Of a DNA stretch of 64,000 bases, positions 8,627 to 41,590 are shown one piece after another. The notes beneath the pieces were generated by a model, which was not told where the DNA came from, ran no database searches, and was given only the letters and a program-made list of their open reading frames with translations. How positions within the stretch are numbered: the first letter of the stretch is position 1; each line of letters begins with the position of its first letter. The DNA is from Candidatus Poribacteria bacterium (GTDB lineage: Bacteria; Poribacteria; WGA-4E; WGA-3G). Where the stretch lies: contig OZ219750.1 in the NCBI GenBank assembly GCA_964291315.2, positions 480,001 to 544,000 on the forward strand. The letters are read 5' to 3'. Both the position numbers and the translations under genes were made by a program.

Positions 8627-9403
8627 GTGAGATTTTTTTATATGTGTGTTTTGATCGCTGTGCTTCTCTTTGGGTTCGGCTTCAGTGTTTATGCCGCTAA
8701 GAGCGACTGCGAAAATTTGGATGGCGATGGCGCGAAACCTGTCAAGGAAGTGAATAAGGAAGGGGACGCTGTCCAGAACGATTATGATGAGGTCGTTGAA
8801 GAGGATGACCGGGAGGGTGTCACGTATCTTGCCTTGATTGGCGGTAGCCAACCCAAGCCAAATAAATGTGGGCTTATTCCTAAGAACGACGAAGGAGAGT
8901 GGACGGGCTGGGGCGGTCCCCTTGACACAGACAACGCTACTATCGGCGAGGGCGTTGGCACGCGTAACGAGATCGTCATCGGCGGGATCTATTTCGAACG
9001 CGGCATCGGTGCACATTCGATTGCTACGTTTGTCTACGATCTCAGCGGCGATAATTACCTTAAATTTGAAGGCTATGTCGGTATGTCAGATGAGAAGGAT
9101 CCTGCGGAATGTGGTCATGGCGGAAGCGGTGATTTCATTTTTAGCGTTGATGGGAAACAAACTTTCAAATCTGATACGCTTCAAGGCACGGACGGTGGAA
9201 AGAATGTTGATGCTGTCAAGGTCGAGTTTGACATTCCTGCAAACGCCAAGGAGCTTGAGATCGTCATGGGTGATGGCGGTGACGGAGCCGGCTGCGATCA
9301 TTCTGCGATTGGCGATGCTAAGCTCCTCAATGCTCAGGCACTTGCTGTTGAACCAGCGAACAAGCTTCCGACAATTTGGGGGCACCTGAAAGCGAGTTAT
9401 TAG
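8627..9403 (+). CDS. Secreted NPCBM/NEW2 carbohydrate-binding domain protein with C-terminal AVEPANKLPTIWGHLK motif
   Basis: Signal peptide; YFERGIGAHS...YDLSG..Y.KFEGYVG.SD...F.VDGK; GGAGG RBS. Confidence 0.82.
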   Translation: MRFFYMCVLIAVLLFGFGFSVYAAKSDCENLDGDGAKPVKEVNKEGDAVQNDYDEVVEEDDREGVTYLALIGGSQPKPNKCGLIPKNDEGEWTGWGGPLDTDNATIGEGVGTRNEIVIGGIYFERGIGAHSIATFVYDLSGDNYLKFEGYVGMSDEKDPAECGHGGSGDFIFSVDGKQTFKSDTLQGTDGGKNVDAVKVEFDIPANAKELEIVMGDGGDGAGCDHSAIGDAKLLNAQALAVEPANKLPTIWGHLKASY

Positions 9404-9511
9404 TATTTGTTTTTGGATCTATCCGTGTTCTGTAGGAGGGCTTTCCGAGTGCTGTTGGCTTTTGGAACTGCTTTTTACGGCTATACTTAAGAAACGAAAC
9501 TTACTATTGTA

Positions 9512-9717
9512 ACGTGATCTTGATAAAAGGGTTAGCGTTCACGGCTGCCCCTCGGTGGCTGCTGAAGTTCAGATCTGTTCAACAAATGCTTATGTCCCAC
9601 AGCTGATACGCTAGCAACGCAGAGTTGATATTCCGTTCGCGTTTCCTAAAGCTCCGAATTATACCAAGGCAGTCCTCTTTAGAGAAAGAAAATACGGATT
9701 ATTTATCAAGCTCGCGT
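9512..9717. mobile_element. MITE-like element 1 (TIR ACGTGATCTTGATAAA...TTTATCAAGCTCGCGT)
   Basis: Imperfect 16-bp TIRs flanked by near-identical 7-mers tattgta / tatcgta (putative TSD). Confidence 0.6.
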
Positions 9718-10143
9718 TATCGTAGGAAATATAGGGCGAAAGTAAAACCGTTTTGATTTGTTAGGCGTATCATTTATAATCTATGAAACCCATGAAAGAT
9801 TTGTCCACTCACACTTCAATCAAAATGTCAGAAGGGCTTGGCAAAGTGCACCGTGTTGGTTGCTCCTCCTCTGATCTAAGCCTTCCTGTTTTGTTGCTTT
9901 TTAGCAATTTTACCCCCCCCCACTACTTTACATTAGTTAGGTTTTTGGTTCATATATTTCTTCACCAAACTGCGTCAGTGTTTACTGCTGTCGCGGTTTT
10001 TTCGCGCCTGCTCGTGCCTTGCACGTTGCAGGCTATTTTTGTTGTCGCGTCGGGATTTTCCCGGTGCATGTTTCGCTGCTATCTTGCCTCTACAGGGCTT
10101 TGCACCTGCCGTGGCGGATGTACATGCGTATCTGTAACTTGTA

Positions 10144-10320
10144 ACGTGGGTTTGCAAAAAGATTTAGGAGAGCTCTCTTGCGGCATAACATGTCAGTCTG
10201 TGCTTTTTCAGCACTTGTAGCAGAGTCTGCTAGACTGTGCATCCGTAGCCTGGTTTCTTATTAGGCTGTGCAAGGATCCTCTTTATTCAAAGATGAGCCA
10301 AATGGTTATCAAGCTTGCGT
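10144..10320. mobile_element. MITE-like element 2 carrying three REP-like hairpins
   Basis: Left end ACGTGGGTTTGCAAAAAGATTTAGGA, right end TTATCAAGCTTGCGT; flanks acttgta / tattgta; internal gtagcagagtctgctagactgtgc and two relatives. Confidence 0.6.
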
Positions 10321-10372
10321 TATTGTAGAGGCGCGTTCTCAGCGCGCTCACAAATATTGAAAGGAAAGCATT

Positions 10373-11140
10373 ATGAAGAAAGTTGTATTAACCCTCGGCG
10401 TTGTCTGTTTCAGCCTCATCGCTGTTCAGATCAGCACCGCCGAGATTGATTTTGATTCTGCAGTCGGTATCTGGCTTTTTGACGAAGGCAAAGGCGGCGT
10501 TGCTGCGGACATGTCGGGTGAAGGGAATGATGGGGAGGTCGTTAAAGCTCCATGGGTAAAAGGCAAATTCGGGATGGCACTCGAATTTGACGGAAAAGCG
10601 GGCTGCGTTAAGACCGAACAAAAACTTCTTGAGGTTCTCGAGGAATTCACGATTCTTGCATGGATACAGAGCACGGACGCTCCGCCGGCACGGACTGGAC
10701 TCGTCGGACAGAACAATGCCCCTGAATTCGGCTTTATTACCACGAATGAACTTAGCCTTTGGACCCCTTCGGCGGGTTTGACGAATAATCCTTGGAAGTT
10801 CAAACATGGCGATGGTGAATGGCATCATGTCGGGTGTGTCGCTACGACAGACTATGTCCATACGTATATCGATGGTGAATATGCCGAGCAGGAAGGGAAG
10901 TGGGCAAACCATGGCGGTTCTCCGTTTAACGTCAATATTGGGGGCTGCGGTGTCTGGGATGATGCGGGGAACTTTTTCCCGGGTCTAATAGACGAAGTCA
11001 TGATTTTCCACTCAGCCTTGGAACAAGAAGATATTCAGGCGCTTATGGACAAAGGCTATCAAGGATATTTGGCTGTTGACCCTGAGGACAAACTGGGGAC
11101 AACTTGGGGGCATATTAAAGCGACACATTATCTCAGGTAA
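10373..11140 (+). CDS. Secreted LamG/concanavalin A-like domain protein with C-terminal AVDPEDKLGTTWGHIK motif
   Basis: Signal peptide; GIWLFDEG.G..AAD.SG.GNDG, GKFG.ALEFDG, FTILAWI, WHHVG, F.GLIDEV.IF..AL. Confidence 0.9.
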   Translation: MKKVVLTLGVVCFSLIAVQISTAEIDFDSAVGIWLFDEGKGGVAADMSGEGNDGEVVKAPWVKGKFGMALEFDGKAGCVKTEQKLLEVLEEFTILAWIQSTDAPPARTGLVGQNNAPEFGFITTNELSLWTPSAGLTNNPWKFKHGDGEWHHVGCVATTDYVHTYIDGEYAEQEGKWANHGGSPFNVNIGGCGVWDDAGNFFPGLIDEVMIFHSALEQEDIQALMDKGYQGYLAVDPEDKLGTTWGHIKATHYLR

Positions 11141-11180
11141 TAACCTTCCGCGTCCTATAGAAGGTTTTCCCAATGCTGGC

Positions 11181-11215
11181 AGTAATTGCCTGTTTTCAGA
11201 AGACAGGCAATTACT
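11181..11215. terminator. Long hairpin between convergent LamG and TPR genes
   Basis: agtaattgcctgttttc-a-gaagacaggcaattact, overlapping the TPR gene stop codon. Confidence 0.6.
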
Positions 11216-12806
11216 TCAATTCGTGCAGTTCCCTAAGTTTGTCTAGCGCAACTTTATTATTTGGCTCTAATTCTAAAATCTTTTCAAAGATGCCAATCGC
11301 GTTTGGGATATTTCCGAGGTGCTGGTAAGCTACCCCTAGCGCGCCATACGCTCGGAGGTGTTTGGCATCAATTTTGATAACCTTTTTAAATTGTGAGATG
11401 GCCTCAAGGTGGTGTTCTTTCATCAGAAAGATGAGGCCGAGTCTATAGAGAGCTTGCGTGTCTGTTTCATCGTAGCGGATAACCTGTGTGTAGTGCGGCT
11501 CGGTTTCGGTATACCGGCGTTTTTTCCAATAAACATTGGCAAGGTTGCGGTGCAGGGTGGGTTTGACTGGCTGCAGTTCGAGTGCTTTCTGATAGTGCGT
11601 GATCGCTTTTTCAAGTTGATTTGTGTTTTCGTACACCATTGCCAGATTCGCGTGTGCATTGGAAAAAAAAGTGTCATAATCCGAGAGGTTGATTTGCCTT
11701 TGATGTTTGTGATTTTCTTTTTTATTCGTTAGAGGTTTCCCTAGTTGAAGTGTCTTTTGACAGGCGAGAATTGCTGCGTCTGTCTGTCCAATTTCATAGT
11801 AGATTTGTCCCATGTAGTTATAGACTTGTGCTTTCAGGTAGGCGATCTCGTCCTTTCTCCGTTGTTTTTGAATCTCTGTGTCGTTGTGGAGTATCCACTG
11901 TGCTCTCTCGAATACAGCTAGAGCTTCTTGATGTCTTTCTGTATGAAGGAGCGAGATGCCGTAGTTTAGCCATATTTTTATATCTTTTTGCGTATCTGAG
12001 ATGAGTGGTTTAAATTCAGCGGCGGCGCGGGCATAATTGCCGTTTAACATATAGTATCTCCCGCGTTCGGCATATAAGGATGCGGTGACCCCGGCTTGTA
12101 AGACTTTCCTCCATATTGGATCTGGTAACTCGCCATATTGGCTCGGCCGGCGTGCCGCTTGTGCGTGCAGTTGCGCGGCTTGTGTATTTCCTGAAACGAT
12201 TTCGATTTGTGCCATCAATGCGTGTGCTTCGCTTTGTCTTGGGTTCAGACGGAGGGCGTGTTCGAAATGCGCCCGGGCGGTTTCTATCTGTTGTTTGGAG
12301 AGTGCAATTTCCCCTAGCCAGAGTTCGGAGAACGGGTTGTTGGGTTGAAGCTGCCTTGCCCGTTCCAGATGATGGCGCGCCTCATCGAGCCGTCCTAAAA
12401 TACGGAGTGCCGATGCCAGATAGAGATGTGCAGGTACGTATTGGGGATCCAAGACAAGTGCGCGTTTCAGCTGTTGAACCGCGGCTTCTGGTTGGTGGTG
12501 CTTGTTGAGTCTTCCTAGTAGATAGTGCCATCGCAATTCATTGGGAGCAAGTTGACTGGCTTGGCGATAGCATGGTATCGCTGGAATTTCCCAGCTGTGA
12601 CTCAAGTAGACATCTCCCAAGTATCCCCAGACCTTCGCAGCATCGGGAGAATTTCGGACGGCTGCTTGGGCGGCTTCGATTGCCGCTAAAAGACGCTTTT
12701 CCTCCACGAGACCGAGATCAGCCGGTTGTGGAATGTCAATTTCACCCTCTACACATGTAAGCGGACTCATCAAGATAAGGCATAGATAGAGCGTTAATTT
12801 CTTCAA
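11211..12806 (-). CDS. Tetratricopeptide repeat protein, secreted
   Basis: Many TPR units (AHANLAMVY...AITHYQKALELQP etc.); N-terminal signal peptide; overlaps the CRTAC1 gene by 4 bp. Confidence 0.9.
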   Translation of the reverse strand: MKKLTLYLCLILMSPLTCVEGEIDIPQPADLGLVEEKRLLAAIEAAQAAVRNSPDAAKVWGYLGDVYLSHSWEIPAIPCYRQASQLAPNELRWHYLLGRLNKHHQPEAAVQQLKRALVLDPQYVPAHLYLASALRILGRLDEARHHLERARQLQPNNPFSELWLGEIALSKQQIETARAHFEHALRLNPRQSEAHALMAQIEIVSGNTQAAQLHAQAARRPSQYGELPDPIWRKVLQAGVTASLYAERGRYYMLNGNYARAAAEFKPLISDTQKDIKIWLNYGISLLHTERHQEALAVFERAQWILHNDTEIQKQRRKDEIAYLKAQVYNYMGQIYYEIGQTDAAILACQKTLQLGKPLTNKKENHKHQRQINLSDYDTFFSNAHANLAMVYENTNQLEKAITHYQKALELQPVKPTLHRNLANVYWKKRRYTETEPHYTQVIRYDETDTQALYRLGLIFLMKEHHLEAISQFKKVIKIDAKHLRAYGALGVAYQHLGNIPNAIGIFEKILELEPNNKVALDKLRELHELK

Positions 12807-14485
12807 AACGGTACCCCTTCTCCCTGATACACCCTTATGCGTCTGTTGGCAGCTGTGCCCTTAAATTTTTCACGATTCCCGTCCGGCCAGTGCACCTCAA
12901 TTGCTTGAACTGCATCAATGCTCCCCAATCCGAAATGTACACTCGGTTCACTGCTGCTGAGGTAACTTGTCCCGCGCAGTACGTAACCCGTCATGTCGCG
13001 TGCTTTTGTGTGTAGCGTTACTTGTGCCCCGAGTGCATGACGATTCTTAGTGATTGCCTGAATAGAAAGCCAGTTATTTTGAGGTGTGCCTGCATCGTTT
13101 CGGAAACAGCGGATTCGATCGTCTAGACTGCTCACGACCATATCGATATCGCCGTCCCGGTCGATGTCTCCAAAAGCGAGTCCGCGACTTACCTCAATCC
13201 GTCTTGTAAAGTCGGGAGCGAGCGAACTCACATCGTTAAATTCGAGAGATCTGCTTGTATTTTCAGTGTCTTTCCCAGAATTTTGGAAGAGTAGATTCGG
13301 CTCGCCGTAAAAGTTCCAAAACGCTTCCATGGTTGCCCCCTCTAAGGGTGCTCCTCGCTTCACTCGCCCGTTGACGAGGGCGATATCCAGGTCTGCATCG
13401 TTATCGAAATCGAAAAATCCGCATCCAAAGCCTGTAAAGGGCAGATCACGCCCTGCGAATCCTGCGGCTTCAGTCATGTCGACAAATACTGTGTGTGAAG
13501 AGGTGATGTAAAGCGTGTTCGTTTCACCTGACAAATGTGTTGCAAATAGGTCTGCTCGCCTATCACGGTTGACATCGCCGACTGCGATGCCCATGCTTCC
13601 TTCGGGTTGCCCGTAGGCGTTAAAGGCGAGACCTCGCACGATCGCCTCTTCGTTGAAAGTGCCGTCTGTCTGATTTACCCACAGTTGATTTGCTTCGCCG
13701 TCGTTTGCGACGTAAAAGTCTACCCACCCGTCTCCTGTCACATCGAGGCAGACAACGCCGAGGCCTCTTCCGGGCACTGAGGCAATCCCTGCTTGTTGTG
13801 TCACATCAGTGAACGTGCCGTCACCCCTGTTTTGGAATAGACGGTCTGGGGCTGGCTCGAAGACTTGTGGGTTGCAGTAATCTAGGGCGCTATGCTTGCC
13901 GCGACACAGGACTTCTGGATCAAATTGAACATAATTGGCAATATAGAGATCGAGGTAGCCGTCTCTGTTGTAATCTCCGAAGGTCGCTGATGTGCCCCAC
14001 GCCTCGTTTGAGATGCCTATTTCTGCGAGGCTAAAAGTACCGTCACCGTTGTTTCGGTAGAATGCATCAGGTCCGTAGTTGGTTACGTGGACATCAGCGT
14101 CTCCATCGTTATCTACGTCTCCGATTGCGACACCTTGTCCGTAGCCTTCGTCGCCGATGCCAGCGCTTGCTGTAACGTCGATGAACGTTCCGTCGGGTTG
14201 CTGTCGAAAGAGGCGATTAGGTGCTGGTGTCTCGGTTCGTCCCGGTGGGGGAAATCGGATGTGCAGGATATCCAATGCAGTATCGTTGTCATAATCAAAT
14301 AGGGCAACGCCGCTGCCGATGATCTCATGCAGAGCGTATGTGCCTGCTGGCCAGGCCTCAGTTGTCTGTGCAACATCTAGTGCTGCAGTTACTTCTGTAA
14401 AGACGGGTGCATCGGTTTCTGATGAGGCTGTGCACACGAGGGTGGTCAGTAGAATAAAAGTTGTGATGTATTGTTTAACAACCAT
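12803..14485 (-). CDS. CRTAC1 family protein (FG-GAP repeats plus ASPIC/UnbV)
   Basis: Repeated DYDNDxxxD/GDVDNDGDAD motifs, SRGLAFGDIDRDGDID, GTSYLSSS...HFGLG...VHWPDG. Confidence 0.92.
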   Translation of the reverse strand: MVVKQYITTFILLTTLVCTASSETDAPVFTEVTAALDVAQTTEAWPAGTYALHEIIGSGVALFDYDNDTALDILHIRFPPPGRTETPAPNRLFRQQPDGTFIDVTASAGIGDEGYGQGVAIGDVDNDGDADVHVTNYGPDAFYRNNGDGTFSLAEIGISNEAWGTSATFGDYNRDGYLDLYIANYVQFDPEVLCRGKHSALDYCNPQVFEPAPDRLFQNRGDGTFTDVTQQAGIASVPGRGLGVVCLDVTGDGWVDFYVANDGEANQLWVNQTDGTFNEEAIVRGLAFNAYGQPEGSMGIAVGDVNRDRRADLFATHLSGETNTLYITSSHTVFVDMTEAAGFAGRDLPFTGFGCGFFDFDNDADLDIALVNGRVKRGAPLEGATMEAFWNFYGEPNLLFQNSGKDTENTSRSLEFNDVSSLAPDFTRRIEVSRGLAFGDIDRDGDIDMVVSSLDDRIRCFRNDAGTPQNNWLSIQAITKNRHALGAQVTLHTKARDMTGYVLRGTSYLSSSEPSVHFGLGSIDAVQAIEVHWPDGNREKFKGTAANRRIRVYQGEGVPF

Positions 14486-14714
14486 ATTTGATATTGGGTT
14501 TATAGATTTCAGGGTCTAAAGTTTCTACGTTTTTAATATCAAGAGAGGTTTGCATTCATATGTTCCTGCCGTATTCTATCAGAATTCTGTTCTTTTTGCT
14601 ATCTATTTTTGAAAGGCTGTCTATAGCAGTTCGGAATCGGAGTTCCTTCCTAAAGTGGCGGGTTGCCAAGTTTGGGTCCAACCCGCGTTCTCTCGTGCTA
14701 TTGTTAAAATAAAT

Positions 14715-14743
14715 TTGACAAATAGTGGGAAATATATTATACT
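14715..14743 (+). promoter_or_regulatory. sigma70 promoter
   Basis: TTGACA-17-TATACT. Confidence 0.7.
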
Positions 14744-14751
14744 CTATTATA

Positions 14752-14886
14752 ATGTGAGTTTGAAAAAGATTTAGAGGTCCAAAAAGCATCGGTAACTCTG
14801 TTGAATGAAAAACATGAAAGGGTCAGACTTGCTTATACCCAAGGTTTCTGTTTGTTCTATGGGCTAAATATTTATCAAACTCATGT
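14752..14886. mobile_element. MITE-like element 3
   Basis: ATGTGAGTTTGAAAAAGATTTAGAGG ... TTTATCAAACTCATGT; same end sequences as elements 2, 4 and 5. Confidence 0.6.
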
Positions 14887-14924
14887 TAGATACAAGGTTG
14901 GAGAAACCTTAACCTTTTTCAAAA

Positions 14925-14959
14925 GAATCCTCCGTGCTTTCGCCGGGGGTATATGTCAA
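14925..14959 (+). mobile_element. IS200/IS605-type right-end remnant (hairpin plus terminal TCAA)
   Basis: gaatcctccgtgctttcgccgggggtatatgtcaa resembles the GAATCCCC...GGGG..ATGTCAA ends of IS605/tnpB elements; no tnpA or tnpB nearby. Confidence 0.5.
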
Positions 14960-14974
14960 TAGAGAGGTGATAGT

Positions 14975-15743
14975 ATGTTAAAGGATTTGCTTTCCAGTCG
15001 ATGGTTTCAAGGCGGGCTTGCGTTCTTTGTGCTGGTTGTCGGAGGGAGTCTGCTGTATTCTTGGAACACCCTCCGCACTACAAAAAGTGATATGGAACGA
15101 CACGCCCGATTTTTACAACGGCTGGAAAAAGAGAACGAGACACCCACTGCAGAAACGCTGAACGTTCAGAATGCGGATGGAACCACAGACATTGTAGAGA
15201 ACCCGATGGAAAACATCACGACACACAGTGAGGTATCTGACGGAACTCTACCCAATGATGCGGTAAGTGCCTCAACAGATGCGTTCTTATTAGAAGATGG
15301 CGCATTAACAGATGCCCTCGCTGAAGAGGTAGCTGTCTCACCCTACGGCTTCGGGCCTTATCCTGAACTGCCAGCAGGTTGGTCTCCTGACACGTTCCCG
15401 ACCCCAACTCCTGAACACGAGTTACTTAAAGCGGGTGCGGATAAAACTGATTTCTCAGGGCATAAACGCTGAAGGTGCCGCATATGGGGAACACAATTTA
15501 ATATACCCTATTGTCAAGGGGACTGTCTATGTAGAATGGACGCTTTATGACGGGCCCGCCGGTCTTACAAAACGGATCGGTATCTTGTATGGTCATCCCG
15601 CAGATGTTCCGCGGATAGAGGCGCTTCAAGAGGAAGCCAGAAGAACAAAGGGAAGTTTTCCTGAGTCGCGAGTCCCATCGGATATAAAACTGATCCCTCT
15701 TAAAGAGGGGGGTATCAACCCTTACGAGTTTCTAAACTTATAG
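14975..15743 (+). pseudogene. Frameshifted membrane-anchored hypothetical protein (ORFs 14975..15472 and 15435..15743)
   Basis: N-terminal TM segment, VSPYGFGPYPELP. Removing one A from cttaaagcgggtg (~15428-15430) gives continuous HELLKRVRIKLISQG...GGINPYEFLNL. Confidence 0.65.
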
Positions 15744-29785: not shown

Positions 29786-30034
29786 GAAATTTGGATTCCG
29801 TACGATCTCGCAGCTGCGGCTGAGGTCAAGGTCTCTATCTATTCTGCGGATGGCGGTCTTGTCCGGACGCTCTCTTTAGGGTATTAGGCTGCAGGTATGT
29901 ACCAGAGCAAGTCTCGGGGGGCGTATTGGGATGGTCGCAACGAAGCTGGGGAAACTGTTGCAAGCGGTCTCTATTTCTATACGCTTGAAGCAGGTTCTTT
30001 CACTGCAACCCGTAAAAAGTTGATAATGAAGTAA
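29786..30034 (+). pseudogene. Orphan FlgD-Ig/T9SS-type C-terminal domain remnant with internal TAG
   Basis: Not in ORF track: EIWIPYDLA..AEVKVSIY..DG.LVRTLSLGY*AAGMYQSKSRGAYWDGRNEAGETVASGLYFYTLEAGSFTATRKKLIMK* (TAG 29885-29887). Confidence 0.8.
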
Positions 30035-34128: not shown

Positions 34129-34740
34129 TTAAGGCGATGTTGGGGCGTACCCGTAGAGCTCAATCTCCGAAATCTTAGCGAGTGCTGTTGTTGCCCCGGT
34201 TATGAAATAATGGTAGCGTCCGCGTTGAATATTGCCGTCGGAGGTTTGCACATTTTTTCGCCTGAGTTGTACATTTTGACGTTTACGTGCCGCGTCCTCC
34301 GTCGTCCGGCGAACGACCACTTTAATACCAGACGTTATAACGGCTGTTTTCAGGCGGATGTCAATAGTTGGCTTGCTATTGCTGCGTTGGTCGTAAATTT
34401 TGTCCCATTTTCCGCGGGAATTGAAGGCGTGTATTTGGAATGTTTGGAGGTTCGTTGAGTGGATCACAATACGGTAGAGAGTTTTCTTTTCTGGCAGGTA
34501 AATGATTGCTTCGGATGGAAGATCGAGGTATACTCCTTTTGTGTCTGGGCTTTCTTGGCGGTGGGATAGCCCGATGGTTTCGGGTTTATTGTCAATGAAC
34601 GCGGGATCAGTTGCTGTTACCCCGGGCAGGAGGGCGTAATTTTCGCTCCACTTCTGCCCGAAGGTACATCCGCAACAGAAGCACAACAGTCCTAAAAGCG
34701 CGTATCCGCAAATGCTCATTCCGTTTAAATTTTTGCTCAT
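34129..34740 (-). CDS. Putative lipoprotein with discoidin/galactose-binding-like domain
   Basis: CCGC lipobox-like, SENYAL...D.K.ET...RIVIHSTNL...ISEIELYG; paralog of 989..1576. Confidence 0.6.
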   Translation of the reverse strand: MSKNLNGMSICGYALLGLLCFCCGCTFGQKWSENYALLPGVTATDPAFIDNKPETIGLSHRQESPDTKGVYLDLPSEAIIYLPEKKTLYRIVIHSTNLQTFQIHAFNSRGKWDKIYDQRSNSKPTIDIRLKTAVITSGIKVVVRRTTEDAARKRQNVQLRRKNVQTSDGNIQRGRYHYFITGATTALAKISEIELYGYAPTSP

Positions 34741-35795
34741 GGTTGCCTCCGAGTCTGGCTGTTCATCTCATTGATCTGTTTCAGAATGTCCGCTTTTGTG
34801 AGTGGCCGTATCTTAAACTGCAATTCCTTAAAAAAGGGTACGAGGTTTTCGCCTGCTGCCTTGCTGAGGTAGTAGACGAGGAAGCTTGTGCGCATTTTCC
34901 CTTCGAGTTTTTGATGTAGGGCATCGGCTTCCATCAATTCAAAGACTTTTATATAGAAGTTGTTTCCGTAACGTTCACGCAATTCAGACACAAGAGTATA
35001 AGCGTATCTATAGCGCCACTGTGTGAGGGGGCCGCCATCGAGATGCCCTTCCCAGTTTTCTAGTTGGTTCACACCGTCAAGATCAAACCGTAGCCATTCT
35101 TTAAGGTTGTCAAATTTCGGATGTGAACCGCCCTTTGCGTATTCTGTCTGAATGAGTACAGCGATACCTTCCGAAAACCATACTGGCAGGAAGTAGATGT
35201 TTGTAAAGGCATGTGTCAACTCGTGTGCTCGGACTCCGTGTTTCTCATACATTGCCAGCGGGAAATCCATCTTAATCCCGTTGATGAATTTCAGGTACTG
35301 CCCATTCTGGAATCCATACCGGTAGCTTGTCGTAGTGGTTGCGGCTAGTCTGCTGCCTTGATAGCGGTCGTGCAACGTCACGTGGATTTTATGCTGCGGT
35401 CGGAAACCGAAGAGGCGGTTCATTGCATCATAGAGGCTCTCCATATAACCGAGCGCGCTTCGAGCAAATGACTCTCGCTCCTCAGCGGAGTCAAGTGTGG
35501 GGTATTCGTATAAATCTTTGGCGAAAGTGAGAGTGTAGTGGTCACTCACACCGTATAGAGCATCGGGTTGCCTGATTTCAATTGTTGCCTTCGAGGGTCT
35601 GAGCATGAGCGAATCGGTGTTCCGATCTTTAAGTATGCGTTTCTCACGACGCTGCTGTGCCTCCTTTAATGCTGCACAACCGCTGAAAATAAGAGCTATG
35701 ATGAGCAACATGACTGTGATTCGGAACCACATTGCATTACAAAGCACACGTTGGGAACTTGCATCTGCGAGGGAGGATCTGTGTCTAGGTTTCAC
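34737..35795 (-). CDS. Gluzincin (peptidase MA-like) lipoprotein
   Basis: IFSGC lipobox; AHELTH...PVWFSEGIA; real start may be MWFRIT at ~35732. Confidence 0.75.
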   Translation of the reverse strand: MKPRHRSSLADASSQRVLCNAMWFRITVMLLIIALIFSGCAALKEAQQRREKRILKDRNTDSLMLRPSKATIEIRQPDALYGVSDHYTLTFAKDLYEYPTLDSAEERESFARSALGYMESLYDAMNRLFGFRPQHKIHVTLHDRYQGSRLAATTTTSYRYGFQNGQYLKFINGIKMDFPLAMYEKHGVRAHELTHAFTNIYFLPVWFSEGIAVLIQTEYAKGGSHPKFDNLKEWLRFDLDGVNQLENWEGHLDGGPLTQWRYRYAYTLVSELRERYGNNFYIKVFELMEADALHQKLEGKMRTSFLVYYLSKAAGENLVPFFKELQFKIRPLTKADILKQINEMNSQTRRQP

Positions 35796-35805
35796 TTTTT
35801 GCCTT

Positions 35806-37197
35806 TCAAAGCGGTACTGCTCTCGATGTATCGCCGATGCGCCGCATCGTAATGTCCTGCGTAAGGGTTGGGTCAGGTAGGTTTGTTTCAGCGAGGCGGC
35901 GTTGCAAAAAAGCCTCCATGTCGGTTTTCAGGCGTGCAACAATCACATCGGCCTCCTCAGCGAGATTGTAGACCTCATCGGGGTCCTCTTCAAGGTCGTA
36001 GAGTTCCAAATCCGGGGTGTTATAGACAGCGGGTGTGCCGCCCGTCTCAACAATTAGTTTCCATTTTTCTGTCTGCCAACCTCGTTTTTTCATCCAGCTG
36101 CATTCCGTAAGGTAGATAGCCTCTGTTGTTCCGTCGTTGCTACCGTTCTCTATTAGCGTGCGGAGGCTTACGCCTTCCATTTTTTCCCGTTCCATGAGTG
36201 TTGTTAATCCAGCGTAATCGAGGATCGTCGGGGCGATATCTGTGAGGCGCACTAGCCCTTTAAGCCGTTGCCCCTGGGCAATAAGCGCGGGGCAGTGAAC
36301 GATTAGTGGAACGTGGCAGTTTGTTTCGTAGAGTCCGTGGTGATCATACCAGAGTTCATGCTCGTCAAGCTCTTCTCCGTGGTCTGCTGTGATGATGAGA
36401 AGTGTCTCCTCAAAATGTCCACAGTCTTGTAGGTATTGGAAAAGCTGCGCTAGGCATGCATCCATGTAAGCGATCGAGGCATCGTACTGGGCATTTACGT
36501 ACCGCCGGTCTCTCCAGAGCCGTTTTTTCGCCATGTTTTCTGGGTCAGTTGGATCTGGGGTGCACATCCATTCTCGAAAGTAATCTGCAAATGGATCACA
36601 TGCATAGACAGGATCCATACTCCGATTGTTCGGATCACATTCATTCCCGCTATAGAACATCCGTTCAAATGGTAGCGGTGGCAGGTAGGGCGTATGTGGA
36701 TCCCAATAGTGCAGAAAAGCGAACCAGGGGTTATCCTGCGCTTGCGCGAGGTCTAGGAGTTCCATCGCGGTCTGGTTAACCGCTTCTGCTTTTCGGGCAT
36801 TGCGGTGTCTGTTATCCCATCGATAGCCTCGATATTGTGTCTCTGAGAAACCTCGTTGAAACCACCTTCCCAAATTGTCCGCAGCCACAGTGAAGTATCC
36901 GGCCTCACTCATTAACTCTGGAACCGTTTTTATATTGTTGGACAAGTCCAACGTTCCGCCTTGTGTAATGATTTGGTGGGATAAGACATCCTTGCCGGTG
37001 AATATTGTGGTATGTGCCGGGTGTGTTGGAATATGCGGACTGATGCACTTCTCAAAGAGCGTCGCTCGTTCTGAAAGTCTATCAAGGTGTGGTGTAGTCA
37101 GGTTATGATGCCCGTAGCAACTCATACTTGATGCCCGCAGCGTGTCTAATGAAATAAGGATGATGTTGCGCAAAAATTTTGTTCCTTTCTTTTTCAT
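35806..37197 (-). CDS. Sulfatase-like (alkaline phosphatase superfamily) hydrolase
   Basis: NIILISLDTLRA, HYWDPHTPY, ITADHGE, DHHGLYE, ELYDL..DP.E..NL; active-site motif is THPAH. Confidence 0.9.
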   Translation of the reverse strand: MKKKGTKFLRNIILISLDTLRASSMSCYGHHNLTTPHLDRLSERATLFEKCISPHIPTHPAHTTIFTGKDVLSHQIITQGGTLDLSNNIKTVPELMSEAGYFTVAADNLGRWFQRGFSETQYRGYRWDNRHRNARKAEAVNQTAMELLDLAQAQDNPWFAFLHYWDPHTPYLPPLPFERMFYSGNECDPNNRSMDPVYACDPFADYFREWMCTPDPTDPENMAKKRLWRDRRYVNAQYDASIAYMDACLAQLFQYLQDCGHFEETLLIITADHGEELDEHELWYDHHGLYETNCHVPLIVHCPALIAQGQRLKGLVRLTDIAPTILDYAGLTTLMEREKMEGVSLRTLIENGSNDGTTEAIYLTECSWMKKRGWQTEKWKLIVETGGTPAVYNTPDLELYDLEEDPDEVYNLAEEADVIVARLKTDMEAFLQRRLAETNLPDPTLTQDITMRRIGDTSRAVPL

Positions 37198-37230
37198 TGG
37201 CGCGGTAGGGGTTGACCACTAATCAGCGCC

Positions 37231-38376
37231 TTAATCACTTGCGGTGCTCTGTGCAGTTGAAGTCTGTGCATCACGGATTGCTTTACACAGATAGGTAATC
37301 CCTTCAGGAATATCATCTACGTGACAGTAAGCATACGCGAGTCGAATCGCTTTCACAGGTGCGCTCGCGTAATGGAAGGCACCACCGTTGGTGAAACCTA
37401 CGCCCTTTTCTGCGGCGAGTTCACGGAGTTTGTCTAGGTCTGTAGTCTCCGGTAAATCTATCCATAGGAAGAGTCCCCCCCGCGGACGGGTCCATGTGCA
37501 AATGTCGCTGACATGTTTGTTGAGGGTTTCTAGGACAGCGCGGCATTTCGCGCCAACGGCAGCGTTGGTCTTTACAAGATGTGTTTCGAGATGCTCCATG
37601 AAGAATTCCGCGACTATTGCGCTTGCCAGTGCACTCGTCCCGCCGTCCCAGCGGTTCTGATGGATTCGTCCGTAATACGGTTCCCGTGCCACGAAGTAGC
37701 CTTGTCGGATGCCTGCGCCTAATATCTTCGAGAAAGTGGCGATAAAAATTACACGGTTTGCTGTATCCAGCTTAAAAAGCGATGCCGGTGTCGGAGTAGA
37801 TGTAAAGTCAATATCACCGTAGCAGTCATCTTCAACAATGAGCGTATCGTATTCCTCTGCTAATTCCAACATCCGTTTTCGGCGTTCAAGCGAGAGGACT
37901 GCGCCCGTCGGGTTCTGGTGGTTCGAAGTTGTATAGATAAAAGAAGGGTGGATATTTTTCCGCTTGAGTACCTGTAGTTTTAATTCCAGATCATTCATAT
38001 CCATACCGTCGATATAGTCCATCGCTACGCCCTCGATGTTTGCTTTGAAATGCCGCATGATACCGAGGGTGCCGCTGTAGGTGTATTCTTCTGTTAGCAC
38101 GGTATCCCCAGGATCGATGAGCGTTCCGAGCACCAATTCTAATGCTTGCATAGAACCCGAGGTGATTGAAATGTTATCTATCGGCAGCGGGATTCCTTCA
38201 CGGCGTTCAAACCGCATAGATGCTAGCTCCCGTAAACCTCGATAGCCGGATTCGCCCGGATAATTAACCAGATTGCCTCCCAACTTACGGAGTGCCTTTT
38301 CGCTAGCCTCAATTAAATCTTTCGTTGGAAACGTGTACGGGTCCGGGCGCCCCCCGGTGAAAGCAAAGTCTTTCAT
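37231..38376 (-). CDS. PLP-dependent aminotransferase class I (LysN/ARO8-like)
   Basis: HQNPTG, IVEDDCY, TFSKILGAGIRQG, P.GGLFLW. Confidence 0.92.
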   Translation of the reverse strand: MKDFAFTGGRPDPYTFPTKDLIEASEKALRKLGGNLVNYPGESGYRGLRELASMRFERREGIPLPIDNISITSGSMQALELVLGTLIDPGDTVLTEEYTYSGTLGIMRHFKANIEGVAMDYIDGMDMNDLELKLQVLKRKNIHPSFIYTTSNHQNPTGAVLSLERRKRMLELAEEYDTLIVEDDCYGDIDFTSTPTPASLFKLDTANRVIFIATFSKILGAGIRQGYFVAREPYYGRIHQNRWDGGTSALASAIVAEFFMEHLETHLVKTNAAVGAKCRAVLETLNKHVSDICTWTRPRGGLFLWIDLPETTDLDKLRELAAEKGVGFTNGGAFHYASAPVKAIRLAYAYCHVDDIPEGITYLCKAIRDAQTSTAQSTASD

Positions 38377-38702
38377 AGTATGCTGTTCCTTTGAACCTGA
38401 GTATTTCTATAAAAATCTCGGTTTGCATCTACCCAAATAGATGGAAAAATCTCAAGGTACAGGCGACACTCTTTATGAATATTCCACGCGCTGTTCAAGT
38501 CCTTGTCCATAAATTTAGGTACTGCTCCTTTTTTCAGCAGATACCAATGTATTGGACATAATTATAGCAGATTTATAAAAAAAAAACAATAAGGGAGATA
38601 CTCTATTTCTATGCTTCTATAGGACGCGAACGTTTCTTTTTTTTGACGCGGATTTTCATATTGTGTTATACTTAAGACACTTTTAATGCACTTTTATGAC
38701 AA

Positions 38703-39185
38703 ATGACAGCCCAAAAACCGCAGCCAAACCTCATGTTTGAACCTATGTGCTTATCTGACCTGCCACAGGTACTCAAGATCGAAAACGAGTGCTTTGAGGA
38801 CCCGTGGAGCGCGACTCATTTCACACTGTCCTTGAAGAGACCGAGATCGCATGATTTTTTTTATGTTGTGCGCTCCGAAAACACCGTCATGGGTTACATT
38901 GTGTTCGCGGTTCTCTATGAAGAAGCTCATATCTTGAATATTGCGGTGCCGGCTGCTCATCGAGGGCAGGGCATCGGTAAGTATCTTCTTGCTTCGGCCT
39001 TAGAGGCAATAGAGGCGCGGGATGGACGCGATGTCTTCTTGGAAGTCGCTGTCAGCAACTTACCGGCACAATACCTCTACCGACAGTTTGGATTTCGCAT
39101 CTGTGGTATCCGAAAAAACTACTACGGGTGTCATAAAGACGCTTACGTTTTCCGTAAAGGAGCTCTAGAAACCGATGCTACTTAA
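38703..39185 (+). CDS. rimI: Ribosomal protein S18 alanine N-acetyltransferase
   Basis: IE..CF.DPWS, EAHILNIAV...RGQGIG, FLEV..SN..A..LY..FGF...G.RKNYY. Confidence 0.88.
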   Translation: MTAQKPQPNLMFEPMCLSDLPQVLKIENECFEDPWSATHFTLSLKRPRSHDFFYVVRSENTVMGYIVFAVLYEEAHILNIAVPAAHRGQGIGKYLLASALEAIEARDGRDVFLEVAVSNLPAQYLYRQFGFRICGIRKNYYGCHKDAYVFRKGALETDAT

Positions 39186-39954
39186 CCTCTTAAACTACAC
39201 CTTTTTAGCAACCGAGGCACTGTCACTCGTAACTCGTCGACAGGAAGCGCGCACTGTCGGCAGGAATGGCTGGCGCGTTATAGAACAAGAAGTCCACTGG
39301 AACCCTTCTGAGACCGCTATTCTTGTCGTGGATATGTGGAACGAACATTGGTCTTGGGGTGCCACGGAGCGCGTGAACGTGATAGCACCTCGGATGAACA
39401 TTGTCCTCGGGCGCGCGAGGGAACGAGGTATACAAATTATTCATGCTCCTTCCGACACGATGGATTTCTACAAGGTACACCCAGCACGCCGCTCAATCTT
39501 AGAACTTCCGCACGCTGATCCGCCCGTTGAGCTGGAACTGCCGGATCCGCCTTTACCGGTTGATGCTTCCGACGGCGGATCGGACACCGGTGAGGCTAGT
39601 TTTTACAAAGCGTGGCATCGTCAGCATCCAGACATCGAGATCTTTGACACAGATGCTATCAGTGACAATGGACAGGAGGTTTATAATTTTCTCCACCACA
39701 AAGGAATCAAGAATGTCATCTTTATGGGGGTTCACACCAATATGTGTGTCCTCGCCCGCTCTTTCGCGATTAAACAGATGGTTCGTTGGGGTTTCAATGC
39801 TGTGCTAGCGCGGGATCTCACGGATGCGATGTATAATCCTTTCAAACCGCCTTATGTGAGTCATGAAGCCGGCACACAGCTCATCATTGAATATATAGAG
39901 AAATTCTGGTGTCCCACAATCCTCAGCGGTGATTTAACAGCCCGAAAAGCCTGA
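39175..39954 (+). CDS. Isochorismatase-like cysteine hydrolase
   Basis: TAILVVDMW, IIHAPS, MGVHTNMCV, RDLTDAMY. Confidence 0.82.
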   Translation: MLLNLLNYTFLATEALSLVTRRQEARTVGRNGWRVIEQEVHWNPSETAILVVDMWNEHWSWGATERVNVIAPRMNIVLGRARERGIQIIHAPSDTMDFYKVHPARRSILELPHADPPVELELPDPPLPVDASDGGSDTGEASFYKAWHRQHPDIEIFDTDAISDNGQEVYNFLHHKGIKNVIFMGVHTNMCVLARSFAIKQMVRWGFNAVLARDLTDAMYNPFKPPYVSHEAGTQLIIEYIEKFWCPTILSGDLTARKA

Positions 39955-40213
39955 TATTCCTTATCGGCCAGGGAAAATAGGTCGGCATTTCCAAATTCTA
40001 CAAATTCTAACAGACACAAGAACATTTTCTGTGTATGCGGCATTTTCCAATGCAGTCCTTTTATATCTCGGTGTTTTTTCTCCTTGCGGGCGTGATAGGC
40101 CCTCCCTATCAAGAAAATCGCGAGTGAAACTTGTTACTTACACGTAGAAGTCGGTATTTGGAAATGTCTTCTACAGAAGGCAGCGAGAAGTTGGCTTTTA
40201 TAGATGCCTCCTA

Positions 40214-40253
40214 AGAGAGAGCCCACGGTAACAAGACCACGGGCTCTCTTTTT
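40214..40253. terminator. Hairpin terminator between convergent genes
   Basis: agagagccc...gggctctct followed by T run. Confidence 0.6.
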
Positions 40254-40277
40254 CAAATTCAATCCGTAGTTTACGGA

Positions 40278-40925
40278 TTACTGACGGCTACCTTTCAACG
40301 CCGCCCATGTAGTTGTGAGTTTCGCTATTGGGTCTACCGTAGTACTTGCAGCAGGCACAACTTCTAGGGCACTAAACATCGCGTTTAGATCGCCAGCACC
40401 CGTCTCTGCGTTCCCTGCAAAATCAAAATCGAGTGTACCATCGCTCACTTGGATACTCGGGTACATCTTGATGTCAATTTCATCTTTACCGGGTGTCACG
40501 TAGAGCGGTTCGACGTTTTCCTTTTCAATGAAAATATCAAAGCCGCGGTTGTTTGGCGACCAATGTTCACCGACAAGATAGGTAACATCGAAAACACCAT
40601 CACCTGTCTTGATCTGATATTTAACTGTGTCCGGGAACTGTGCCCAGCTAACTGCGTAAAAAAGCTCTACATCATAGCCAGCAGCTTCGGCTTGTGCTTT
40701 TGCATCCGCTGTTAAAGTTTCGACTTGAGCTGTCCGAGGTGCCTTTTCAATCCAACCGCCCCAGGCTTGGTTTTCTTGTTGTGCTCCGTGCCAGATGCGT
40801 CCTTGTGAATCGGTAAAGTCGTCTGCTGTGCCACCTTTTACCCGGAATTCTTCTGCTGGAAGCAGTGTCGGCACTGTGAGGCCTATAAGAAAAACCACTG
40901 CCATTAAAACATACAATTTTATCAC
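40278..40925 (-). CDS. Secreted malectin-like domain protein with C-terminal TVDPIAKLTTTWAALK motif
   Basis: Signal peptide, GG..FTDSQGRIW, V.Y..GEHW...R.FDIFI, V.DG.L.F.F, SALEV; GTG start after GGAGG. Confidence 0.78.
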   Translation of the reverse strand: MIKLYVLMAVVFLIGLTVPTLLPAEEFRVKGGTADDFTDSQGRIWHGAQQENQAWGGWIEKAPRTAQVETLTADAKAQAEAAGYDVELFYAVSWAQFPDTVKYQIKTGDGVFDVTYLVGEHWSPNNRGFDIFIEKENVEPLYVTPGKDEIDIKMYPSIQVSDGTLDFDFAGNAETGAGDLNAMFSALEVVPAASTTVDPIAKLTTTWAALKGSRQ

Positions 40926-40937
40926 AATTACCTCCAT

Positions 40938-41590
40938 TTATTCGTTTTGATGTTGCCTTTTCAGTGCGCTCCATGTCGTTGCGAGCTTTTGTTTTAGGTC
41001 AACGGTTAATGCGGGGATTACTTCTATCCGGCTAAACATTGCATTGAGATCGCCTGCACCGGTCTTCGGGTTGCCAGCAAACTCAAAGGACATTACCTTG
41101 TCTTTAACCTCAATACCTTCATAGTACTTAATGTCGATTTCGTTTTGGCCGGGGGTGAGATACTCTGTCTCAACGATTTTGCCTTCAATGAGGATGTCGA
41201 AGCTTCGGTTGTTTGGCGACCAATGTTCACCGACAAGATAAGTAACAATTAAATGTACCTTTGCCGGTTTTCAATCCATTTTAACGACGCCTGGAAATTG
41301 TGCCCAGCTAACTGGATAAAAAAGTTCTTTGTCGCATCCTTCGGATTTTGCGAGTTTTTCTGCTTCTTTCGTGAGGTTTTGGACTTCCGCGGTGCGCGCA
41401 AGTTTCTCAATCCAGCCGCCCCACTCTTTTTTTCATTTTGTCCGCCGTGCCAGATACGTCCCTTGGAATCTTTAAAATCTTCCAGCTTACCGCCCCATAC
41501 CCGAATTTCTGCGGCAGGTTGCACATTGCAGACGATCGTTATCGCAACAAATGCGGCAAGCAAAACGGCGAAAAGTAAGTTTCTTTCCGT
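40938..41590 (-). pseudogene. Decayed tandem paralog of the malectin-like gene
   Basis: AAGGAGG then ACG in the start position; frameshifts near 41430, 41275 and 41248; fragments FKDSKGRIWHGGQ, WGGWIEK, VSWAQFP, YLVGEHWSPNNRSFDI, GAGDLNAMFS, TVDLKQKLATTWSALK align with the neighbour. Confidence 0.85.

Follow-up and report, generated by a model that had tools for sequence, protein, structure and literature searches.

A short C-terminal tag on exported proteins of Poribacteria matches a junction box found upstream of type IX secretion C-terminal domains

Type IX secretion (T9SS) is usually treated as a trait of Bacteroidota and the FCB group, and its signals are generally taken to depend on a folded C-terminal domain (CTD), which known T9SS export requires. 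PMC11969387 states that 'short' CTDs of 40-55 aa function in Prevotella intermedia, reports that the last 22 residues of Hbp35 are sufficient for the secretion of GFP, and places the T9SS cleavage site in the coil that immediately precedes the folded CTD. PMC12618676 describes secretion and targeting signals that are separable within CTDs.

The window considered here is a 64-kb stretch of DNA that encodes four copies of a short tail, one of them in a pseudogene. The source is a sponge-associated Poribacteria genome that is 95% complete. The relevant features of the window are the following:

8627..9403, + strand: NPCBM-domain secreted protein, 258 aa (PF08305, E 1.9e-23); tag at 9344-9400
10373..11140, + strand: LamG (Laminin_G_3) secreted protein, 255 aa (PF13385, E 7.5e-19); tag at 11072-11137
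40278..40937, - strand: 219-aa secreted protein with no Pfam family and a weak malectin-like lead; tag at 40281-40340
about 40938..41575, - strand: pseudogene paralogue of the 219-aa protein; tag still encoded, at 40941-41006
1467..6719, + strand: PorU-like C25 peptidase, 1750 aa, with Propeptide_C25, Peptidase_C25, CARDB and its own type A CTD (FlgD_ig / TIGR04183)
11211..12806, - strand: secreted TPR protein, of a family enriched beside tag genes in other Poribacteria genomes
12803..14485, - strand: secreted FG-GAP / UnbV_ASPIC propeller, overlapping the TPR gene by 4 nt, of the non-carrier family most enriched beside tag genes
29807..29992, + strand: remnant of a canonical type A CTD (FlgD_ig match, in-frame TAG), a box-less type of C-terminal signal

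A first-pass annotation of this DNA had pointed to a C-terminal motif shared by the four tails, and all of them were located where it had placed them. The three intact carriers have no CTD match in Pfam or NCBIfam at E values up to 1. For the 219-aa protein, which had been called malectin-like, the tail stood and the fold label is reduced to a weak lead from the Atlas (0.85-0.86, under the tool's 0.9 mark). Its pseudogene paralogue, which lies upstream of the intact gene and is 59% identical to it over residues 56-219, has suffered one frameshift and one in-frame stop and retains the tail. The AF2 model of the LamG carrier, the one carrier to which our statements on fold and disorder refer, has a mean pLDDT of 87 (101-sequence alignment) with the domain above 90, and its tail (residues 236-255) falls below 50 and is drawn as a low-confidence helix. 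According to this model, the tag is not part of the carrier fold and is predicted to be disordered.

Genome-wide, a tail HMM identified 96 open reading frames (ORFs) with the motif no more than 10 residues from the end, whose C-terminus consists of V-[EDS]-[AP]-x-x-K-L-x-T-x-W-[GAS]-x-[LIV]-K followed by 1-9 residues. These ORFs form 28 unrelated sequence clusters; the carrier classes are LamG, NPCBM, CBM4_9, CBM9, 3-keto-disaccharide hydrolase, GH43_C2, metallopeptidase, PD40 and Kelch propellers, a 27-member LTD family, and several clusters without any family. A signal-peptide-like N-terminus, called heuristically from a 10-residue window with a Kyte-Doolittle value of at least 2.0 within the first 45 residues, is present in 90 of the 96 carriers. 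The expectation that such an HMM would return many matches, nearly all with signal peptides and at the extreme C-terminus, was borne out almost without exception as to position. It had also been remarked that the tail lacks a transmembrane (TM) helix, and indeed none of the 96 carriers has a C-terminal one: among the last 30 residues, the highest-scoring 15-residue Kyte-Doolittle window has a mean of 0.10 over the tails and reaches 1.65 at most. With the Trp taken as position 0, both this residue and a small residue after it occur in 96/96 tails, and V(-10), K(-5), L(-4) and K(+4) occur in 93, 90, 86 and 94, respectively, while T, V and I are interchangeable at position -2. From V(-10) to K(+4) the tag spans about 15 residues; a further 1-9 follow, and the stretch past the last Lys has a mean net charge of +0.6.

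Six-frame translation of the 4.4-Mb genome yields 68 occurrences of the strict pattern K-L-x-[TS]-x-W-x-x-[LIVM]-K, of which 65 are no more than 9 residues from a stop. The DNA version of this pattern gives 68 matches in the source genome versus 0+2 for the reversed control, and 9-130 matches per genome versus 0-3 in the control among 40 relatives. A chance origin of the shared tail is excluded. In the best 150 matches among 1.84 billion representative proteins, the motif lies within 10 residues of the C-terminus 141 times, and across collected loci it does so in 220 of 227 matches. The data support a tag that is portable between unrelated folds and sits at the C-terminus of signal-peptide proteins. 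The tag matches no Pfam or NCBIfam model and no PDB chain, and a literature search found no published description of the tail-only tag; the earlier statement that no characterised machinery is known for it holds for this tail-only form. The DNA pattern is present in 151/151 sampled Poribacteria genomes and stands well above the control in 149, and the two genomes that score low by this pattern contain 61 and 65 profile matches. C25 peptidases were found in 61/61 genomes, a PorV orthologue in 45/46, and all four PorV/PorQ clades in every genome tested. Because the tag, C25 and PorV occur in essentially every genome, phylogenetic profiling cannot discriminate inside the phylum.

What is new here is that the same box precedes the canonical T9SS type A CTD at a fixed 6-residue distance. 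We use the term pre-CTD junction box for it, which is defined in this analysis and is not a curated family. Metagenomes were scanned for W-G-x-[LIVMF]-K followed by 2-12 residues and then N-[YF]-P-N-P, with the upstream positions left unconstrained, and the scan yielded at least 119 loci with 72 distinct junctions. The unconstrained positions reproduce the tail, with V/I(-10) in 61/72, P(-8) in 44/72, K/R(-5) in 59/72 and T(-1) in 53/72 junctions. The junction consensus V-[ED]-P-x-G-K-x-x-[TV]-T-W-G-x-[VIL]-K, located at a fixed distance upstream of the CTD start N-Y-P-N-P-F, equals the tail consensus (n = 72 and n = 96) at -10, -8, -6, -5, -1, 0, +1, +3 and +4. The linker from box to CTD measures 6 residues in 60 of the 72 junctions, and the Trp lies 101 residues from the stop in 47. 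Among 10 box+CTD proteins inspected for domains, FlgD_ig (8/10) and Por_Secre_tail (6/10) begin right after the box. The tails lack only the part downstream of the box and the tail-only proteins end within the linker, of which one metagenomic tail-only example retains the first residues.

The 6-residue spacing between box and type A CTD is thus seen both in FCB-group T9SS cargo and in a small number of poribacterial proteins. The box+CTD pattern occurs in 97 of 151 Poribacteria genomes versus 0 control matches, most Poribacteria have one or a few such proteins, and tail-only and box+CTD ORFs share contigs. The source genome contains about 34 CTD proteins (34-41 of type A), none of them with the box; with no box+CTD protein in this genome, the tail must work there without a box+CTD partner in cis or in trans. 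Seven carriers share a body domain with CTD proteins of the same genome, the domain adjoining the tail in one and the CTD in the other.

As judged from family models, the genome encodes candidate outer-membrane and attachment components of a T9SS-like system, among which the SprA and PorU matches are sub-cut-off. The SprA-like candidate is a TIGR04189 match of 134.9 bits in a 2242-aa ORF (NCBIfam cut-off 200), and four barrels score above the PorV/PorQ family cut-off (122-210 bits versus 90). Three PorU-like C25 peptidases are encoded, of which the window copy scores 381 bits, below the NCBIfam cut-off of 420. CTD models PF18962 or PF13860 match 24-41 other ORFs of the genome. A GldM/PorM motor protein was not found in a search run without a positive control, and in five other genomes there are no tail genes within 1.5 kb of PorV-like genes.

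We favour, at somewhat better than even odds, the reading that the tail is a stand-alone pre-CTD junction box that serves as a T9SS-linked sorting or attachment tag. The carriers would first be exported by Sec, and the box would then be read by a component of the T9SS-like apparatus, probably a PorU-like C25 sortase working with a PorV/PorQ-family shuttle, which would make it a minimal determinant of sorting or attachment. The 1-9 residues past the last Lys would mark the place where a CTD would be cut off, and tail-only proteins may either mimic the end of processed cargo or present a leaving group of only a few residues to a sortase-type reaction. Against this reading counts the length of the tail, 15-25 residues versus 70-100 for a folded CTD, together with its lack of motifs B, D and E. 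A stronger version, which we consider less likely than not, is that the box acts autonomously, without a CTD, as a signal of a type-IX-like system. By itself it would be sufficient for recognition and transpeptidation by a PorU-like C25 sortase, as a minimal 'Gram-negative sortase tag', or for transfer to the translocon. In that case T9SS signals would be modular, with a box and a beta-sandwich able to function separately, and about 100 proteins per genome would take a box-only route.

The first-pass annotation had already read the tail as a sorting or anchoring signal. The portable terminal tag and the link to T9SS, namely the box before type A CTDs and the PorU-, PorV- and SprA-like genes, were supported; the cleavage site and the named C25 gene were not. 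Cleavage had been placed at the AV(E/D) junction. Since the Pfam CTD model (Por_Secre_tail) begins after the box and tail-only proteins stop in the 6-residue linker, any PorU-like cut would, by analogy, be expected to fall after the box and not before it. The C25 gene of the window, given earlier as 1605-6719 (ORF 1467-6719), is not supported as the particular processing enzyme because its size class of about 1650-1800 aa is limited to family f1 among the matches listed while the tag occurs throughout the phylum. The protein is nonetheless truly PorU-like, it also has ordinary substrates in the approximately 34 CTD proteins, and it stays a candidate processing enzyme as one of three paralogues.

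Among the rival explanations, the box could be a docking handle for a partner outside T9SS, a ligand that plugs lectin-like modules onto a common secreted scaffold in a cohesin-dockerin-like manner, which we consider unlikely. The best data-driven partner candidates are the secreted FG-GAP/UnbV_ASPIC propellers with their TPR partners, the only families enriched beside tail genes, where T9SS parts are not. TPR domains are classic readers of C-terminal peptides. In the source genome 6 of 11 ASPIC genes (binomial p 0.004) and 4 of 10 TPR genes (p 0.06) lie within 4 genes of a carrier. In 120 loci of 8 kb around tails of other Poribacteria genomes, ASPIC (17 loci, spread over 8 different paralogue groups) and TPR (14 loci) are the top non-carrier families, with naive p values of about 1e-8 and 7e-7 from loci that, coming from related genomes, are not independent. 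To this are added the ASPIC/TPR gene overlap, two ASPIC-family members that, by their size and N-terminal sequence alone, look like fusions to a TPR-like N-terminus, and two relatives in which an ASPIC gene directly follows tail-only genes, apparently as part of the same operon. However, an ASPIC or TPR gene lies within 4 genes of just 11 of the 95 carriers, the window TPR protein has an orthologue in only 18 of 61 genomes of the order, and TPR paralogues are 18-22% identical with only structural repeat residues conserved, which hardly suits a protein that would read a tag as invariant as this one. The reverse test, which found the tail in 3 of the 30 best ASPIC loci versus 1 of 30 PorV control loci, was not significant, and deep-branching genomes have 1-2 ASPIC genes versus 30-46 strict tail matches.

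The complementary distribution in the source genome, with about 96 box-only and 34 CTD-only proteins and the two parts fused elsewhere by a fixed linker, would suit a split signal in which the tail-only box docks onto the box-less CTD of another protein and thereby gains passage through the T9SS translocon or retention at the surface. Where box and CTD are joined in one cargo protein, the box would pair in cis as a beta-strand or hairpin with the first CTD strand. The interchange at -2 and the alternating hydrophobics at -4, -2 and 0 fit a beta-strand, and eight small proteins of 203-236 aa are little more than a CTD. This is nevertheless quite improbable in our judgement: AF2 draws the free tail as a low-confidence helix, CTDs are normally cleaved after export, which would release the passenger, and the separation of box and CTD is not absolute across Poribacteria. 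That helix, which would bring L(-4), W(0) and [LIV](+3) onto a single face flanked by two Lys, and the positive charge after the last Lys would point instead to a T9SS-independent physicochemical tail, either an amphipathic peptide with affinity for the membrane, LPS or peptidoglycan or a C-terminal degron recognised by a tail-specific protease of the periplasm. We assign this a low probability, as seven near-invariant positions, including a Thr and the small residue after the Trp, are kept phylum-wide, which is more than membrane helices or degrons need, and the fixed register before T9SS CTDs is left unexplained. That the tails are functionless relics of lost CTDs would agree with their ending where a CTD would start and with the one retained linker start, but relics would decay. 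Each genome carries about 100 of these tails on proteins unrelated to one another, and conservation extends across all 151 genomes, diverged variants included, which makes this reading very hard to believe and disfavoured.

On the favoured reading, a phylum of sponge symbionts retains only the short pre-CTD box on about 100 exported lectin-like, propeller and peptidase proteins per genome, and these box-only proteins coexist with conventional CTD cargo and several PorU-like sortases. Should the box be read alone, it would constitute a new and very small sorting or attachment tag, T9SS signals would be modular, and a handle would be gained on how uncultivated symbionts decorate their surface with glycan-binding proteins.

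Among known systems, the tail resembles LPXTG/sortase, PEP-CTERM/exosortase and GlyGly-CTERM/rhombosortase signals in being a short C-terminal motif on many unrelated exported proteins that is followed by a few mostly basic residues, and its V-E-P start is faintly PEP-like. Unlike these tripartite sortase-type signals, it has no hydrophobic TM segment. Membership of PEP-CTERM/exosortase was rejected, as the tails have no TM-like window and neither exosortase (PF09721) nor PEP-CTERM (PF07589) has a match in the 95%-complete genome; LPXTG/sortase was rejected as the tail has neither LPXTG nor a hydrophobic segment. An outer-membrane-protein beta-signal was likewise set aside, with an aromatic Tyr/Phe end in only 15 of 96 tails and Lys/Arg as the last residue in 53.

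C-terminal signals read by TPR proteins, such as PTS1/PEX5, EEVD/Hop and the OMP beta-signal/BamD, offer an analogy only. Like them, the tag is a short C-terminal peptide on many clients, and secreted TPR genes are enriched beside tail genes; unlike them, the TPR family is too divergent and patchy, and the free carboxylate is not the anchor because the distance from tag to C-terminus varies from 1 to 9 residues. The minimal-signal experiments kept the last strands of the CTD, whereas the tail corresponds to the segment before the modelled CTD. Membership of the tail in the T9SS type A CTDs (TIGR04183 / PF18962) was rejected, as there is no folded domain (pLDDT below 50) and no family-model match; a Sec-type signal peptide is present (90/96). 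The tail differs from these CTDs in its 15-25 residues, without a beta-sandwich or motifs B, D and E, and in its predicted disorder. It is like them in being a C-terminal signal on unrelated Sec-exported proteins in the same architectural slot, and in that the box is contiguous with such CTDs in many proteins; the genome also has PorV/Q-family genes and candidate PorU- and SprA-like ones with sub-cut-off scores.

Three genes and one pseudogene in the window end in the tail, a C-terminal peptide of about 15 residues (V-[EDS]-[AP]-x-x-K-L-x-T-x-W-[GAS]-x-[LIV]-K) followed by a short run of further residues. The four tails had been located by the first-pass annotation, and each was confirmed at its exact site. 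The tail-carrying genes are the following:

8627-9403, forward strand: tail-carrying NPCBM protein (Pfam PF08305, E 1.9e-23)
10373-11140, forward strand: tail-carrying LamG protein (Pfam PF13385, E 7.5e-19)
40278-40937, reverse strand: tail-carrying protein of 219 aa without a Pfam family

The 219-aa protein has a sub-threshold Atlas lead to malectin clusters (0.85-0.86), and its upstream paralogue, 59% identical over residues 56-219, is a pseudogene with one frameshift and one in-frame stop in which the tail can still be read. The window covers C1:480001-544000 of a genome of 4.4 Mb on 4 contigs. In the whole genome, a strict peptide pattern occurs 68 times in six-frame translation, 65 of these no more than nine residues from a stop, and a tail HMM identifies 96 ORFs, here called carriers, whose motif lies no more than 10 residues from the C-terminus. 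When the carriers were compared by BLAST with their last 30 residues cut off beforehand, they fell into 28 clusters, namely 30 LamG proteins, a 27-member Lamin Tail Domain (LTD) family, eight clusters of 2-5 members, and 18 singletons. Their Pfam domains include NPCBM, Laminin_G_3, LTD, CBM_4_9, CBM9_1, 3-keto-disaccharide hydrolase, GH43_C2, metallopeptidase, PD40, and Kelch, and several carriers are without any Pfam match. A signal-peptide-like hydrophobic N-terminal stretch was recognized heuristically in 90 of the 96, and the remainder look like wrongly called starts or gene fragments.

Counted from the invariant tryptophan as position 0, the upstream consensus is V(-10) in 93 of 96 carriers, [E/S/D](-9), [A/P](-8), K(-5) in 90, L(-4) in 86, and T(-2) in 83, and it continues with W(0) and [G/A/S](+1) in all 96, [L/I/V/M](+3) in 95, and K(+4) in 94, after which 1-9 residues (mostly 3-4) remain. 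No TM-like segment is present in any of the 96 tails. In an AF2 model of a LamG carrier (101-sequence alignment), the LamG domain has pLDDT >90 while residues 236-255, drawn as a helix, are below 50, and the tail is thus predicted to lie outside the carrier fold. Position -2 varies between T, V, I, and L from one orthologue to another, and the alternation of L(-4), position -2, and W(0) fits a beta-strand as well as a helix, so that the conformation of the tail is probably partner-dependent.

The LTD family consists of 27 secreted proteins of about 950 aa (~910-1007) with two Lamin Tail Domains, often encoded as tandem pairs, at C1:545053-550765 just beyond the window end and at about 25 more sites such as C4:1158289-1163974. 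The tag is near-identical in all members and is preceded by L-R-G-D, the RGD of which is not conserved (RGE, RGN, and HGD occur). A small unannotated ORF lies just upstream of LTD-family genes in five of five copies.

The tail is a phylum-wide feature of the Poribacteria. A core DNA pattern has matches in 41 of 41 genomes of the order (9-130 each, against 0-3 for the reversed control) and in 151 of 151 phylum genomes sampled. Two genomes, G045 and G048, are at control level with the DNA pattern, yet they contain 61 and 65 tails by profile search, spelled K-A-A-T-A-W and K-M-A-T-A-W, which rules them out as tail-less genomes and leaves no negative genome among those sampled; both also possess all four PorV/Q clades. 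A search of 1.84 billion representative proteins with the tail profile gave 419 matches at E <=0.001. The motif is within 10 residues of the end in 141 of the 150 best, and the other nine comprise seven with 11-32 additional residues suggestive of read-through, one terminal variant, and one unrelated repeat protein. Among the 80 matches listed in a scan of species-representative genomes, 77 are Poribacteria by title and three are 'uncultured bacterium'. A protein search with the last 40 residues returned six close orthologues only, and a full-length LamG search found the CTD family (the T9SS type A C-terminal sorting domain) in none of 120 relatives among the matches listed. The tail has no counterpart among Pfam and NCBIfam models, the best PDB match to its profile (E 0.21) is at chance level, and neither the motif nor a poribacterial C-terminal tag was found in the open-access papers searched. 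P0255 and P0258, both LamG proteins that end in a perfect tag, carry the source labels Planctomycetes and Candidatus Doudnabacteria; either these are mis-assigned bins or the tail-only form is present beyond Poribacteria. The tag is also genuine and terminal in two signal-peptide proteins, one LamG-like, encoded on two IMG/VR contigs classed as viral (L185 and L187), which may be phages, prophages, or misclassified poribacterial DNA; the remaining two viral-contig pattern matches are chance.

We interpret the tail as a free-standing version of a conserved box that in T9SS type A cargo normally makes up the junction between passenger and CTD. This arrangement came from a scan of metagenome contigs for W-G-x-[LIVMF]-K and N-[YF]-P-N-P, in that order and 2-12 residues apart. 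The scan gave at least 119 loci with the box directly upstream of a CTD (box+CTD), with 72 distinct junctions among the matches listed. In these 72, the positions that the pattern left unconstrained reproduce the tail, with V/I(-10) in 61, P(-8) in 44, G(-6) in 35, K/R(-5) in 59, and T(-1) in 53; the linker from K(+4) to the asparagine is six residues long in 60, and the distance from tryptophan to stop is 101 residues in 47. In ten complete box+CTD proteins, Pfam places FlgD_ig (eight) and Por_Secre_tail (six) right behind the box, and in the two WD40 proteins the C-terminal domain is not among the families listed, which are the best 25 of 50-61. The passengers of the ten are FG-GAP/ASPIC, WD40, NHL, esterase, and cohesin domains, and the nearest Atlas clusters, which serve as a lead only, are Eiseniibacteriota, Cloacimonadota, Zixiibacteriota, Ignavibacteriota, and Fidelibacterota.

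A box+CTD DNA pattern is present in 97 of 151 Poribacteria genomes, usually once (control 0), and is absent from this genome, where the CTD proteins all lack the box ahead of the CTD; likewise, none of the 227 motif matches in the loci examined has a CTD behind it. Seven carriers share a body domain with CTD proteins of this genome, and this domain immediately precedes the tail in the one protein and the CTD in the other. In two relatives, the sole box+CTD protein is an FG-GAP/ASPIC protein whose gene is directly downstream of tail-only genes, and four metagenome box+CTD contigs bear tail-only ORFs as well. A split signal or a hitch-hiking mechanism is given little probability. At the loci L407 (G018:C1:914500-922500) and L408 (G061:C1:5265000-5273000), one or two tail-only ConA-like genes are followed within 10 nt by the box+CTD FG-GAP/ASPIC gene. 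At C4:172592-176353 of the present genome the tail-only gene is retained (84% identical), the ASPIC gene is missing, and of the neighbouring gene no more than a short remnant is left.

The genome encodes candidate T9SS-like machinery and 34-41 canonical type A CTD proteins. There are three PorU-like C25 proteins, and the one in the window (ORF 1467-6719) contains Propeptide_C25, a full Peptidase_C25 (E 1.8e-87), CARDB, and a FlgD_ig-type CTD and scores 381 bits on the NCBIfam PorU sortase model (cut-off 420). Of four PorV/PorQ-family barrels above cut-off, one is like PorV and one like PorQ, a third comes closest to the 'PorV2' model, and the fourth is less specific. A 2242-aa ORF matches SprA/Sov with 134.9 bits, short of the cut-off (200), and GldM had no match in the genome in a search without positive control. 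The NCBIfam PorU2 and PorV2 models gave partial matches only, under their cut-offs, and a literature search on PorU2/PorV2 gave no relevant paper among those listed. C25 genes occur in 61 of 61 phylum genomes, usually in 2-3 copies, and a PorV orthologue in 45 of 46. Neither exosortase nor PEP-CTERM was found in this genome. In the region C4:559954-570747, the SprA-like gene comes after the gene of a 1203-aa protein in which three stretches are FGE-sulfatase, and before an LTD-family gene fragment with a decayed tag; PorK/GldK are FGE-sulfatase-like. Eight small proteins (203-236 aa; e.g., C4:559170-563565 and C4:2045496-2046134) contain little beyond a signal peptide and a type A CTD, and in at least three cases a very large protein follows, one with an FGE-sulfatase domain by Pfam and the others by sequence only, which may represent an adaptor encoded next to its passenger. 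In the window, at 29807-29992 on the forward strand, a CTD of this small-protein kind is present in decayed form with an in-frame TAG. For the phylum, a 2014 single-cell study reported TIGR04183-like domains and no Por structural genes, and its supplementary tables list poribacterial TIGR04183 genes (PMC3909097).

Phylogenetic profiling was uninformative as to the reader of the tail because each candidate occurs in every genome. A complex prediction of the PorV orthologue (26-row alignment) with the tail (21-row) scored 0.00 where the mark is 0.32, a 'no answer' verdict that speaks neither for nor against binding. Three carriers adjoin one PorV/Q gene in this genome, and this is treated as coincidence, given that in five other genomes none of 18 PorV-like loci has a tail within 1.5 kb. 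Neighbouring epimerases, beta-lactamase-like proteins, dehydrogenases, and the small ORF upstream of LTD genes bear no resemblance to a sorting enzyme. Enrichment beside tail genes is confined to secreted FG-GAP/ASPIC propellers and the TPR proteins that partner them, and one such pair adjoins the LamG gene of the window:

11211-12806, reverse strand: TPR protein gene
12803-14485, reverse strand: FG-GAP/ASPIC propeller gene

In this genome, 6 of the 11 ASPIC genes lie close to a carrier (p 0.004), as do 4 of the 10 TPR genes (p 0.06), and at 120 loci from other genomes ASPIC is found in 17, representing eight paralogue groups, and TPR in 14 (naive p ~1e-8 and 7e-7, the related genomes not being independent). 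Two genes (C4:2539939-2542287 and C4:1246339-1249830) appear, from size and N-terminal sequence, to be fusions of a TPR-like N-terminus with FG-GAP/ASPIC, one with a lipoprotein-like signal, which suggests that the separately encoded proteins may act together. This enrichment is what favours a docking handle outside the T9SS, a reading that we consider unlikely, since as universal readers the two families fall short: only 11 of 95 carriers have either gene nearby, the reverse ASPIC test is not significant, and TPR, with an orthologue in 18 of 61 genomes and paralogues mutually 18-22% identical, is too patchy and too divergent.

We lean towards reading the tail as a sorting or attachment tag linked to the T9SS. 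What speaks most strongly for a function of the box itself is its retention on about 100 proteins per genome throughout the phylum, here without any box+CTD protein; that it is a relic is hardly credible, and that it serves as a physicochemical tail or a degron is improbable. The first-pass annotation had proposed a minimal signal for export or anchoring, possibly cut at AV(E/D) by a PorU-like C25 enzyme such as that of the window. The general idea, a short sorting or anchoring signal with a link to a PorU-type system, is supported in part, and the specific site and enzyme are not. Among the matches listed, proteins of that enzyme's size class (~1650-1800 aa) occur only in family f1, and a tag that spans the phylum cannot have this enzyme as its reader; other C25 paralogues could serve.

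In characterized systems, PorU cuts in the coil just ahead of the folded CTD (PMC11969387). As the Pfam CTD model begins behind the box, a PorU-type cut would by analogy fall after the box and leave it on the mature cargo, which argues against cleavage at AV(E/D). Tail-only proteins end within the six-residue linker and may resemble processed cargo or present a minimal leaving group. Elsewhere in this genome, at C1:113475-120735, an Ig-repeat protein of 2068 aa whose end resembles a CTD stands directly ahead of a PorV/PorQ-family barrel, an arrangement reminiscent of the pairs of type B CTD cargo and dedicated shuttle described in PMC12618676. The fold and motifs that define the CTD family were tested and are lacking in the tail, and for this reason the tag is kept out of that family and is filed as a new variant of T9SS-type sorting signal.
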